Below, one piece after another: positions 10,654-12,514 of a stretch of 64,000 bases of DNA. This stretch comes from Hyphomicrobiales bacterium (lineage in GTDB: Bacteria; Pseudomonadota; Alphaproteobacteria; Rhizobiales; NORP267), in contig JAJFHA010000022.1 in assembly GCA_021775875.1 (NCBI GenBank), positions 146,298 to 210,297 on the forward strand, in the 5' to 3' direction. The translations under genes and the position numbers were made by a program. The notes beneath the pieces are model-generated. The model saw only the letters and a program-made list of their open reading frames with translations. It did not search any database and was not told the DNA's origin. Position 1 is the first letter of the stretch. Each line of letters starts with the position of its first letter.

Positions 10654-10880
10654 TGGGTGAAGCCGTGTATTTCAAGGAAGGCGACCGGGTCCAAAAATCA
10701 AACGGCTATCTCTGGCCAGGCGTGATCCTTACCGTGTTCAAAACCCTCGCCGGAGAGACCCGCGTCGTTGTGGAATGCACGGTGCCGGAAGTAGCCGGCG
10801 CACTCCATATATACGCCCCGCGCCAGCTTCATTTGACCAATCAACCACCTGAAATGGAATTGCTGGAGACAATAGATTGA
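10650..10880 (+). CDS. DfrB/R67 (type II DHFR)-like SH3-fold protein
   Basis: F..GDRV.K..G..W.G...VVE...G.LHIY aligns by eye with the R67 core FGMGDRVRKKSGAAWQG...AVE...GSVQIY. Confidence 0.6.
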   Translation: MMGEAVYFKEGDRVQKSNGYLWPGVILTVFKTLAGETRVVVECTVPEVAGALHIYAPRQLHLTNQPPEMELLETID

Positions 10881-10884
10881 CCAA

Positions 10885-11244
10885 TCAGCAGGGCCAGGCA
10901 CCGACGATCTGGAAGGCAAAACCTAACACAATGAATATGATAGCAGGCTTGATGGCACGCCGTCGGGTTTTGAGATATCTCATCCGTGGCGGATCTTCAT
11001 TGCCCCTCGTTCGATCAACTTTCATGTGTATTTCGTCCGCCATGCGATCGAGTATTTCGGATGAATTCCCGTCGGCAATCAGCTGCCGGCGAAGCAATTT
11101 AATGACGCCTTCCATATTCTCCTTCGAAATCTCCAAATCAACACTCGCATACAGGTCGTATGCCAGCACCAAGAAGCCAAAAATATCGAGAAAGAGCCCT
11201 AGGATTGTCCACCAGCTTTGCTCATGTCCAAGGATCACACACAT
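10885..11244 (-). CDS. Small membrane protein (moron-like, opposite strand)
   Basis: Two terminal hydrophobic helices; more AT-rich than the flanking phage genes. Confidence 0.6.
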   Translation of the reverse strand: MCVILGHEQSWWTILGLFLDIFGFLVLAYDLYASVDLEISKENMEGVIKLLRRQLIADGNSSEILDRMADEIHMKVDRTRGNEDPPRMRYLKTRRRAIKPAIIFIVLGFAFQIVGAWPC

Positions 11245-11408
11245 GCAATATCTCCACTAATTGGAGCGGACGGCCCGGCGTGAAAACACGCCAGGCAGCG
11301 GGCCTAGCGCCAACCAGAACCCGCTCGACGCCAAGTTCCTTAACGCCACGTCCGCCGCTGCTATGCACAGCGAGGTGATACTGGCAGATTCGTGGAAGTT
11401 CCACACCC

Positions 11409-11624
11409 ATGGAACCAGTTCGTTGTGGATCATGTCGCAGGCTCTTGCTCCGAGCGGCATCGGGCGCTATAGCTCGCTCAATTGAAGTCAAGTGTGGCCG
11501 TTGTGGCGCACTGAATATATTGAGGCCGACAGAGCCCCAATCAGAACGCCCCGAGCGTCTTTCAGGAGATGACTCGTGTGGCTCTACCTACCAAAAGAAA
11601 CACTCACTCAAGGAACCAATATAG
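11409..11624 (+). CDS. com: Mu Com-like zinc-finger translational regulator
   Basis: VRCGSCRRLL...IEVKCGRCGALN (CxxC...CxxC); overlaps a DNA-modification gene as Mu com does mom. Confidence 0.85.
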   Translation: MEPVRCGSCRRLLLRAASGAIARSIEVKCGRCGALNILRPTEPQSERPERLSGDDSCGSTYQKKHSLKEPI

Positions 11625-12498
11625 CGGTCTCGCGCTATGCGCTGGATTTGGCGGATTGGAACTTGGCCTGCATATCGCAGAACCCGGATATCGAACCGTT
11701 TGTTATATCGAGCGGGAAGTGTTTGCCGCGTCCGCTCTCGTGGCGAGGATGGAAGACAAGGCCCTGGATGATGCGCCTCTCTGGGATGACGTTAAGTCCT
11801 TCGACGGCCGCCCGTGGCGTGGCAAAGTGGATATCCTCACTGCCGGATACCCTTGCCAGCCATTCACCTTCAGCGGCAAGCGACGCGGCAACAAAGACCC
11901 TCGCCATCTTTGGCCGGATGTGGCGCGGATCATCCGCGAAACCCAGCCTGAATGGGTCTTCTGCGAGAATGTCGAAGGGCATCTCGATCTGGGATTTGCC
12001 GAAGTCGCGGCAGAGTTTCAAGAAATGGGGTTTACGCTCAAAGCAGGCCTGTTTTCAGCGTATGAAGCAGGAGCGAACCACCAGAGGCGGCGTCTATTCA
12101 TGCTGGCCCACACCAACCATGGGAATGAGCGGCAACCAGTGCGAATGGAAGATAGGACCGGACGGGTTGATATTCCAGACACGAACCGATCAGGTCGGCA
12201 GTCAGATAGGGCTGTCCGAAGTGGCGCGCTCCTGGACCGCCTGGTGGCTCGGGTGTGTGGCTCTGGGCATGAAGCCGGTATCGACACCTACCGGTTACCC
12301 CTATTCGCACCCGCTCCATCTGCGTTGCAGGCCTGGGACCAGGCTCTTGCCCGGCGAGTTGACCTTCAACCCGAATTTTTCAGACTGGATCATGGGGTGG
12401 CCAATCGGATGGAGCGACCCTTCGCAGCCGGTAACGGAGTGGTCAGTCTGGCTGCGGCGCTCGCGTACAGCACTCTCCGAGCTGCTTTCAATGAATAG
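11569..12498 (+). CDS. DNA cytosine-5 methyltransferase, catalytic chain (start may be GTG 11578)
   Basis: Motifs I (LCAGFGG), IV (GYPCQPF), VI (ENV), VIII (QRRRRLF), X (GNGVV); no recognisable motif IX in this frame. Confidence 0.9.
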   Translation: MTRVALPTKRNTHSRNQYSGLALCAGFGGLELGLHIAEPGYRTVCYIEREVFAASALVARMEDKALDDAPLWDDVKSFDGRPWRGKVDILTAGYPCQPFTFSGKRRGNKDPRHLWPDVARIIRETQPEWVFCENVEGHLDLGFAEVAAEFQEMGFTLKAGLFSAYEAGANHQRRRLFMLAHTNHGNERQPVRMEDRTGRVDIPDTNRSGRQSDRAVRSGALLDRLVARVCGSGHEAGIDTYRLPLFAPAPSALQAWDQALARRVDLQPEFFRLDHGVANRMERPFAAGNGVVSLAAALAYSTLRAAFNE

Positions 12499-12514
12499 GA
12501 TGGCTTCAAGTTGA
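11576..12514 (+). CDS. Overlapping +1-frame ORF; putative second (TRD/motif IX) chain of the methyltransferase
   Basis: 312 stop-free codons; AGGAG 7 nt upstream of GTG; WPTP and FNPNFSDWIMGWPIGW motifs. Confidence 0.7.
   Translation: MWLYLPKETLTQGTNIAVSRYALDLADWNLACISQNPDIEPFVISSGKCLPRPLSWRGWKTRPWMMRLSGMTLSPSTAARGVAKWISSLPDTLASHSPSAASDAATKTLAIFGRMWRGSSAKPSLNGSSARMSKGISIWDLPKSRQSFKKWGLRSKQACFQRMKQERTTRGGVYSCWPTPTMGMSGNQCEWKIGPDGLIFQTRTDQVGSQIGLSEVARSWTAWWLGCVALGMKPVSTPTGYPYSHPLHLRCRPGTRLLPGELTFNPNFSDWIMGWPIGWSDPSQPVTEWSVWLRRSRTALSELLSMNRMASS

Follow-up and report, generated by a model that had tools for sequence, protein, structure and literature searches.

Cytosine-C5 methyltransferases that consist of two chains are treated as rare, and M.AquI and M.EcoHK31I are the only ones named in the portions of the literature that we draw on here (PMC3404938). 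In these portions M.AquI is described as an enzyme split in the variable region, with motifs I–VIII in the alpha chain and motifs IX–X in the beta chain (PMC3404938), and M.EcoHK31I as an alpha chain with motifs I–VIII, motif X and what is predicted to be the target recognition domain (TRD), as well as a beta chain that holds motif IX only. The M.EcoHK31I beta chain is encoded in another frame within the alpha gene, both chains are required for activity, translation of beta can begin at internal methionines and beta withstands deletions at its N-terminus (PMC2836561, PMC3404938). The plasmids for alpha and beta are called pET3a-M38 and pET3a-C23 (PMC2836561), names that we read as sizes of about 38 and 23 kDa. 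The present work concerns a stretch of 64,000 nt, referred to below as the window, from a Hyphomicrobiales bacterium (assembly GCA_021775875.1, contig JAJFHA010000022.1, positions 146,298–210,297, forward strand), and in it a pair of genes, A and B, written into the same DNA. We consider it likely that the pair encodes a heterodimeric C5 methyltransferase of the M.EcoHK31I type, made from one DNA stretch read in two frames. An earlier reading of the window from its letters and open reading frames (ORFs), the sequence-only reading, had named M.EcoHK31I as the precedent for an alternative-frame beta chain that supplies motif IX, and this agrees with what those portions of the two papers say (PMC2836561, PMC3404938). 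The sequence-only reading is largely borne out.

The two ORFs lie on the same strand and overlap almost completely, as had been read from the sequence. ORF A, for the catalytic chain, runs from 11569 to 12498 (+) and gives 309 aa from its ATG, and ORF B, for the proposed second chain, occupies the +1 frame of A from 11576 to 12514 (+) and gives 312 aa from a GTG start. The claim that the same bases encode one segment in A and another in B was seen to be correct at 12367–12415, where A reads QPEFFRLDHGVANRME and B reads NPNFSDWIMGWPIGWS. A single stop codon occurs in the +1 frame of A, a TGA just 5′ of the B start, against 5.60 ± 1.45 expected from 2000 synonymous-codon shuffles (P(≤1) = 0.0015) and 7.74 expected from 2000 whole-codon shuffles (P = 0.0005), which bears out the proposal that so long an open +1 frame is a sign of selection. 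The +2 frame of A has 14 stops. Three further C5 methyltransferase genes found in this 3.1-Mb genome are canonical, full-length and match the full profile (L170–L172; C18:111445-112434, C15:42977-43873 and C13:19230-20243). They have 24, 26 and 34 stops in their +1 frames and longest +1 open runs of 39–81 codons, and are an imperfect control because their guanine-plus-cytosine (GC) content is lower (0.39–0.47 versus 0.58). One of the three sits on the same contig as the window, some 100 kb upstream of it.

Relatives were collected with patterns from an alignment of A proteins only, which fetched 160 loci, 80 from IMG/VR contigs and 80 from genome contigs, mostly of Alphaproteobacteria, with Roseibium nearest (65%). 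Among the 163 loci compared, all chosen by A alone, 159 have a +1 frame whose longest open span takes in at least 90% of A, so that the expectation of two frames kept open in homologs held, with four exceptions. The +1 frame has no stop at all in 75 of the 115 loci whose match spans A fully, with a mean of 0.47 stops, compared with means of 9.6 in the +2 frame and 2.9, 7.8 and 7.0 in the three antisense frames of the same loci; for 104 non-identical loci, 0.47 stops were observed and 2.69 expected from synonymous shuffles. The open frame is seen across GC contents of 0.49–0.72 and in many independent assemblies, and an assembly frameshift in a single-chain gene, which had been named as a possible source of error, does not account for an arrangement that recurs in this way. 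The arrangement is thereby confirmed as real, being due neither to chance nor to assembly error.

The four exceptions are of different kinds. Two loci (L046 and L130) have one in-frame stop each in B, with B-like sequence resuming beyond it. In a third (L051, IMGVR_UViG_3300037515_000672) inserted foreign sequence interrupts the A/B pair; after the insertion its A frame runs into an apparent insertion sequence (IS) transposase, a label read from the translation. In the fourth (L042, IMGVR_UViG_3300027852_000079, about 1501–2805) B is complete and ends normally (HPPFVEWMMGWPVNWTRV), it is followed in B's frame by an HNH-like ORF (CxxC…HH…CxxC by translation), and the A frame remains open up to motif X, about 190 codons further on, as though a third coding unit had entered the overlap. 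Further from the window, tblastn of A against phage genomes gave distant matches, and a full-length +1 ORF is present in Acinetobacter phage ABMM1, Synechococcus phage Ssp-JY39 and the P22-like Salmonella phage S9-5, whose A proteins are 33–37% identical to that of the window (35–41% in MAFFT alignments). In these three phages the +1 ORF begins 4–7 nt after the A start and carries LNPxWVEWLMGWPxGWT near its C-terminus. Shorter, internal versions of B occur in phages of Lacticaseibacillus, Stenotrophomonas and Paenibacillus.

Both frames are not only open but under purifying selection, and the selection alternates along the DNA. From 105 distinct sequences we made a codon alignment and kept 71 that share less than 80% identity; synonymous diversity was scored as how often a codon differs among pairs with the same amino acid. 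Over A residues 13–36 and 97–114 the synonymous diversity of A is 0.55–0.60, which serves as the baseline for selection on A. Over residues 43–96 the A value is 0.27–0.36 and the B value 0.08–0.42, and selection is mainly on A with some constraint from B. Over residues 175–240 B is the selected frame (A 0.19–0.42, B 0.43–0.63), over 241–258 it is A (A 0.52–0.55, B 0.34–0.37), over 265–282 again B (A 0.12–0.16, B 0.42–0.55), and over 283–300, the region of motif X, again A (A 0.37–0.43, B 0.20–0.21). The proposed reduction of synonymous variation is thus present in both directions, with A suppressed where B is conserved and the reverse. The same pattern appears in raw nucleotide diversity, which over A residues 271–285 is higher at codon position 1 (0.39) than at position 3 (0.29), and GC at A codon position 1, which is position 3 of B, rises to 0.83–0.85 in the two B-dominant stretches.

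The clearest case is the B motif MGWPxGW(T/S), present in 155 of 163 loci. The A codons beneath it are xAT in 155/155, GGG in 154/155, NTG in 154/155, GCC in 154/155 and NTG in 155/155, while the A residue at the first NTG varies between L, M and V, and across the site B shows 18 different 8-mers and A 64 different 9-mers. This wobble pattern holds over the whole range of 0.49–0.72 GC and in several host phyla. As the wobble bases of A are fixed while its residues drift, selection on A alone cannot explain the pattern.

Chain A has the features of a catalytic chain. It matches Pfam PF00145 (DNA_methylase) with E 7.4e-30, over profile positions 4–168 of 324 only, and phrog_363 (label: DNA methyltransferase) with E 2.2e-50, and it aligns by sequence to residues 72–176 of M.HhaI (E 4.5e-14), a stretch that covers PCQ, ENV and QRRR. 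We take its conserved segments, all on the + strand, to be motif I (FxGxG, S-adenosylmethionine-binding, 11626–11655), motif IV (the catalytic PCQ, 11851–11859), motif VI (ENV, 11965–11973), motif VIII (QRRRLF, 12082–12099) and the region of motif X (GNGVV, 12430–12444). Residues C96, Q97, E133, N134, R173, R175, G288, N289 and V291 are invariant among 55 sequences. Modelled alone with AlphaFold2 (AF2) from a 55-row alignment, A has a predicted local distance difference test score (pLDDT) of 73.4 and a predicted template modelling score of 0.71; it is confident over residues 18–190 and 288–309 (71–97 over 11–190 and 91–93 over 291–309), moderate over 241–268 and below 50 over 199–239 and 269–287. 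With Foldseek the model matches M.HhaI (2uz4_A, E 1.8e-14, root-mean-square deviation (rmsd) 3.5, 177 of 327 columns) and also M.HaeIII and DNMTs. The model thus shows an M.HhaI-like large catalytic domain that includes the C-terminal motif X helix. No TRD and no motif IX were found between motifs VIII and X within the A chain, and A belongs to the C5 family for its catalytic domain only, because the Pfam match ends at position 168, residues 199–239 and 269–287 are disordered, and the structural match covers about 175 of 327 columns. These results agree with the earlier reading that A holds the C5 motifs I, IV, VI, VIII and X and no motif IX.

Chain B matched no family in Pfam or NCBIfam, and matches phrog_1008 (label: DNA methyltransferase) with E 1.5e-13. 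Its N-terminal residues M1, W2, L3 and P6 are invariant among 55 sequences, and its N-terminus is better conserved than that of A. The AF2 model of B alone has a pLDDT of 57.4 and falls below 50 over residues 1–140; means over blocks of 10 residues are 63–90 over most of 141–312, with a dip to 53–55 over 161–180 and values of 84–90 over 191–230. The modelled elements are a helix at 145–168, a hairpin at 189–202 and helices at 213–229, 266–273 and 288–311, which together would form a folded C-terminal domain of about 170 residues (141–312, 11996..12511, +). It contains WPTP (12104–12115, +) and NPNFSDWIMGWPIGWS, of the form NPxFxxWxMGWPxGW (12368–12415, +). The models of A and B are complementary, B being best folded where A is disordered: the predicted disordered linker of A at residues 199–239 (12163..12285, +) is written in the same bases as the best-folded part of B. 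For two stretches, about A 143–182 and A 291–309, the models show structure in both frames.

What B may contribute is suggested by two actinophage methyltransferases annotated as single chains. The B profile aligns in frame to Mycobacterium phage Fancypants gp73 (residues 342–371 of 408, hhalign probability 93.6%, E 2.2e-7) and to Gordonia phage SchottB gp4 (residues 277–307 of 356, probability 79.6%, E 1.5e-5), and in SchottB the B-like segment lies between motif VIII and GNGVVP. A place after motif VIII and before motif X is that of motif IX in C5 methyltransferases, whose consensus the B segment also appears to resemble. B therefore appears, from sequence and model, to carry a motif-IX-like segment. 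It probably carries target recognition, and with it sequence specificity, as well, because the segment of A at the place of the TRD is disordered and B is the frame selected there. The earlier assignment of this B segment to the TRD and motif IX stands in so far as it aligns between motifs VIII and X of single-chain phage enzymes, and lacks a match to a solved structure. Likewise, of a further function suggested for the long N-terminal part of B, what we find is that residues 1–140 are predicted to be disordered and that parts of them show B-specific constraint. As a separate observation, SchottB (L168 635–1384) and Fancypants (L166 441–1016), in whose enzymes the motif MGxPxGW is in frame, also have +1 ORFs of 192–250 codons over motifs IV–VIII, which align to positions 84–181 of the B profile (hhalign probabilities 80.7% and 92.5%, identities 16–23%) and contain xPTP repeats; these ORFs may be a by-product of A conservation or may belong to a differently split enzyme. 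In the ESM Atlas, B 141–312 is nearest to viral PF00145 clusters (0.86–0.87, below the 0.9 level), which we use as a lead only, since the out-of-frame translation of a real gene may be scored as a member of the family to which the gene belongs. Searching phages by tblastn with the C-terminal 150 aa of the window's B gave nothing at E ≤ 1e-3, the motif being too short for that query.

The two chains were also modelled together, as had been suggested, with A 1–309 and B 141–312. The three runs gave an ipSAE (interaction prediction score from aligned errors) of 0.84, 0.85 and 0.86 (median 0.85), with at least 75% agreement in contacts and a partner pLDDT of at least 69; the best of three controls scored 0.00. 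The mark of 0.85 is reached by 58 of 80 solved complexes and by 2 of 110 mismatched pairs, counts that hold only roughly here, where custom alignments were used, and the score measures likeness to the C5 fold rather than proven binding, because solved single-chain methyltransferases could inform the model. In the modelled interface (A 159–174, 242–272 and 283–302; B 173–183 and 260–307), B 173–183 with WPTP contacts A 159–174 in the motif VIII region, B 260–287 with the MGWPxGW motif contacts A 242–272, and the last helix of B contacts the motif X helix of A and A 27–39. The A-dominant island at residues 241–258 falls within this interface.

Taken together, we propose the following enzyme. Chain A, with motifs I–VIII, a disordered linker and the motif X helix, would be the catalytic large domain. 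Chain B would be translated from the +1 frame, from a start 2 nt upstream of the likely GTG start of A and with the same Shine-Dalgarno sequence. The N-terminal half of B, written over the catalytic motifs of A, would be disordered, and its C-terminal domain would dock on A beside motif VIII, the PLFAPxP island and the motif X helix. B would in this way supply the small-domain functions that have no counterpart in A, that is, the motif-IX-like element and probably target recognition, and the upstream Com zinc-ribbon protein would probably gate both chains at a common translation initiation region, in the way that mom is governed by Com in phage Mu.

The start region is compact. A Shine-Dalgarno sequence, AGGAG (11564..11568, +), common to both starts, lies 7 nt from the B GTG at 11576, 9 nt from an A-frame GTG at 11578 and 0 nt from the ATG at 11569; because AGGAG abuts this ATG, the GTG at 11578 is the more likely start of A, which would then have 306 aa. 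Upstream of motif I the A frame has no start codon besides these two. Among the 163 loci, 81 have the start type ATGnATG, with the A start 4 nt before that of B, and 58, like the window, have the type NTGTGG, with the NTG of B (24 GTG, 23 TTG, 11 ATG) followed 2 nt later by the A-frame GTG; 21 loci have no WL-type B start by the rule used and 3 are of other types. A Shine-Dalgarno-like 4-mer is found 4–8 nt 5′ of the B start in 57 of the 58 NTGTGG loci, and given this and the spacing of AGGAG we suggest that a single ribosome-binding site probably feeds both A and B.

In phage Mu, Com activates the translation of mom by binding its mRNA. In the window, a com-like gene for a zinc ribbon of 71 aa (11409..11624, +; Pfam PF10122, Zn_ribbon_Com, E 5e-11) overlaps with its 3′-end the starts of A and B (11569/11576 to 11624). 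Of the 163 loci, 69 have a Com-like ORF upstream, among them all 58 of the NTGTGG type and none of the 81 of the ATGnATG type, and in these 69 loci the tblastn match to Com reaches or passes the B start wherever that start was located. The region further contains a small hairpin with an ACGC/GCGT stem and a 5-nt loop (11546–11549 paired with 11555–11558, +), whose 5′-end lies about 18 nt upstream of the Shine-Dalgarno sequence and which we regard as a candidate Com operator. RNAalifold found no consensus structure in 43 start regions of 60 nt, and the 4-bp hairpin was drawn by hand and tested after that null result. In the 43 Com-linked loci 85.5% of its cells are paired, compared with 73.0% in shuffles and 14.5–52.9% in slid controls; all four pairs change on both sides, and none of 500 shuffles reached the covariation score. 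Uncontrolled single-sequence folds often pair the start region. Of the proposal that the gene pair is controlled by Com, what stands is the com gene that overlaps the starts and its presence in 69 of 163 loci; control itself is plausible by analogy with Mu.

Several points weigh against a two-chain enzyme with B as its small domain. The loci compared are the best 80 matches per collection for patterns derived from A and not a random sample of C5 methyltransferases, and they share descent, so that locus counts are counts of non-independent events. In 2 of the 163 loci a stop falls within B while A is intact; there A may be tolerated without a full-length B, or the stops may come from sequencing errors or from decay of the gene copies. 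The model of B found no convincing relative among solved structures (Foldseek, best E 1.5; VIA-align wide, best Z 3.3 with rmsd 4.2 over 47 residues, for the helix 124–171 only), and the B profile found nothing below E 0.1 in an hmmsearch of Protein Data Bank (PDB) sequences. As B has no solved relative, its assignment as small domain, or TRD plus motif IX, rests on position, motif likeness and model, and the failed searches are no evidence that B lacks a methyltransferase small-domain fold. The score of the complex may reflect likeness to solved single-chain enzymes, and the M.EcoHK31I literature, in the portions used here, puts the TRD in alpha and not in beta (PMC2836561, PMC3404938). What the analysis shows is that both frames are open and under purifying selection, that A has the large-domain fold and that A and B score high when modelled together. 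Translation of both chains, their binding to each other, a need for B in activity, specificity in B and regulation by Com are inferred, and for the translation of B this has to be counted on the negative side.

We have weighed the two-chain enzyme against three other explanations, of which the most serious is that B is translated and selected for a separate function, such as a regulator, a DNA-binding protein or an anti-defence protein, and merely overprints A. Such a protein could explain why residues 1–140 of B are disordered yet constrained, with M1, W2, L3 and P6 invariant and A synonymous diversity down to 0.27–0.36 over A 43–96, and it would fit the lack of a solved relative of B and the very large, unnamed family of B-like proteins (25331 clusters at E ≤ 0.001). 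We nevertheless find it unlikely, since B sits inside a C5 methyltransferase gene in every locus examined, single-chain methyltransferases carry its motif in frame after motif VIII and before motif X, the co-model is confident with B filling the places where A is disordered, and M.EcoHK31I provides a precedent. Alternatively, one polypeptide could be made by programmed ribosomal frameshifting, with motifs I–VIII from A, TRD and motif IX from B, and motif X from A again. The order of selected segments, A, B, A, does mirror a single-chain enzyme, single-chain relatives with the motif in frame exist, and two metagenomic proteins (P0071 and P0100) join both frames; these, however, are single-contig calls that may be indel errors. 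Frame dominance moreover alternates at least four times (A 13–180, B 175–240, A 241–258, B 259–282, A 283–end), so that several efficient shifts in both directions would be needed, and a frameshift product would need neither a B start 2–7 nt from that of A nor an MWLxxP N-terminus nor a Shine-Dalgarno site, all of which are conserved. For these reasons we hold frameshifting to be very unlikely.

The last explanation is that B is not expressed at all, and that the open +1 frame is a by-product of A, of codon usage or of RNA constraint, or stems from an assembly frameshift. GC-rich genes do often carry long spurious ORFs, one antisense frame (r0) is also poor in stops (mean 2.9, with none in 6 of 115 loci), and the conserved motifs of A impose some conservation on the +1 translation. 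Shuffles that keep the A protein and its codon usage nevertheless give 5.6 stops where 1 is observed, the frame is open at 0.49–0.72 GC in many independent assemblies, and beneath the B motif the A residues vary (L/M/V; D/H/N) while the wobble bases are fixed in 154–155 of 155 loci, in codons that include GGG for glycine and xAT, which we assume to be disfavoured in GC-rich genomes. Chance as the origin of the ORF was ruled out by the shuffles and by the stop counts of the other frames, and assembly error is excluded because the arrangement recurs in 159 of 163 loci. This explanation we regard as very unlikely and already close to refuted, and we favor the heterodimeric enzyme.

The com-A/B pair is located at the right end of a prophage. 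Phage tail genes (minor tail, tape measure, J-like and fibre) fill 1–10 kb of the window, the com-A/B module is the last phage-like element, and host-type genes follow from about 13 kb. Just upstream of com we also note two ORFs that overlap almost completely on opposite strands, at 10877–11260 (+, 127 aa) and 10885–11244 (−, 119 aa).

Beyond the window, a tblastn search with the B of Salmonella phage S9-5 matched 99 phage records, and the 40 of these matches that were listed all lie under genes mostly annotated as methyltransferase, with a few hypothetical or unannotated. Among 1.84 billion proteins the B profile finds 25331 representative clusters (at 50% identity) at E ≤ 0.001, 10433 at E ≤ 1e-10 and 2343 at E ≤ 1e-30, and among these there may be single-chain enzymes that have the motif in frame. 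Those matches in protein databases that are named are all called 'hypothetical protein', and none bears the name of M.EcoHK31I. In GenBank, only the A frame is annotated in Acinetobacter phage ABMM1 (L001, OQ471969.1) and Salmonella phage S9-5 (L003, MW722521.1), only the B frame, as hypothetical, in Synechococcus phage Ssp-JY39 (L002, PP438429.1), and both in Paenibacillus phage Shelly (L169, NC_041909.1), where the +1 ORF, gp56, is entered as 'g55 internal gene' within the methyltransferase gp55. The records of ABMM1, S9-5 and Ssp-JY39 thus confirm the early suspicion that gene callers miss one of the frames. The databases also hold chimeras of the two frames (P0071, the N-terminus of A with the C-terminus of B, and P0100, the N-terminus of B with A) and B-like sequence fused to a Dam-type PF05869 domain (P0276 and P0344), which are probably due to indels or read-through in short contigs. 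We considered P0071 as a natural single-chain form and rejected it as a probable indel artefact, since neither WPTP nor motif X is present in it and its source is a single 5-kb contig. In the literature that we searched, which covered few subscription journals and did not include REBASE, we found no description of family-wide conservation of a dual-frame methyltransferase, no mention of the B motif strings, and nothing relevant on a Mu-like Com/mom system tied to a cytosine methyltransferase. The architecture has a precedent, and its breadth, the twin starts and the full-length overlap were not found in print.

Our results suggest that the M.EcoHK31I design is that of a widespread phage and prophage family, one that is systematically mis-annotated, with entries for A only, for B only as hypothetical, or for both. 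Expression of the annotated frame alone, for work on methylation motifs or anti-restriction, may therefore yield an inactive enzyme. With 300 codons of same-strand overlap, alternating selection, two stretches modelled as structured in either frame, twin starts and one ribosome-binding site, the locus is an unusually clean natural test case for dual coding, relevant to the evolution of such genes and to what sets the ratio of their two products. Separable catalytic and partner chains are also of interest for engineered targeted methyltransferases, a use to which M.EcoHK31I has already been put. A bolder generalization would be that all short phage and prophage C5 methyltransferases of the phrog_363 plus phrog_1008 type are obligate heterodimers from almost fully overlapping genes with twin starts 2–4 nt apart, in which B holds the specificity and its N-terminal half has a function of its own; we put this forward tentatively, as a claim that may well be too broad. 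If it were true, few conserved dual-coding regions known from bacteria and phages would be as long or as widespread, and the monomeric state held to be the rule among C5 methyltransferases would have a large exception.

It remains to place the window pair among the known systems. Window A falls in phrog_363 and window B in phrog_1008, both database labels that come without explanation, and a study of Paenibacillus larvae phage genomes has two DNA-cytosine methyltransferase entries and, in the part of the paper we cite, is silent on overlap (PMC6070908). In P. larvae phages, unlike in the window, B starts 184 nt inside A and not at the A start.

With Mu com-mom the window locus has in common a Com gene, at the end of a phage genome, whose 3′-end runs into the start of a gene for DNA modification. 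The window locus also has the small covarying hairpin upstream of the Shine-Dalgarno sequence. It differs in its target, which here would be a two-frame C5 methyltransferase, so that one Com-gated region would serve two starts. With M.AquI the pair shares the nature of a naturally two-chain C5 methyltransferase, but where M.AquI consists of consecutive pieces with motif X in beta, motif X is here in A and the genes overlap over their full length. The closest system is M.EcoHK31I, of which M.EaeI is an isoschizomer. Its defining trait, a second chain in another frame within the catalytic gene, is found here too and is kept in 159 of 163 loci, and by the published description of M.EcoHK31I the likeness extends to the distribution of motifs, with I–VIII and X in window A, and B in the +1 frame, and to a B with a folded C-terminal part and an N-terminus that looks dispensable. 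The differences are that the beta of M.EcoHK31I is a smaller, internal ORF, whereas window B spans all of A with starts 2 nt apart; that M.EcoHK31I has its TRD in alpha, whereas the corresponding segment of window A is disordered and B is the selected frame; and that M.EcoHK31I belongs to a restriction-modification system, whereas the window pair is linked to Com at the end of a prophage, with no restriction gene noticed beside it.

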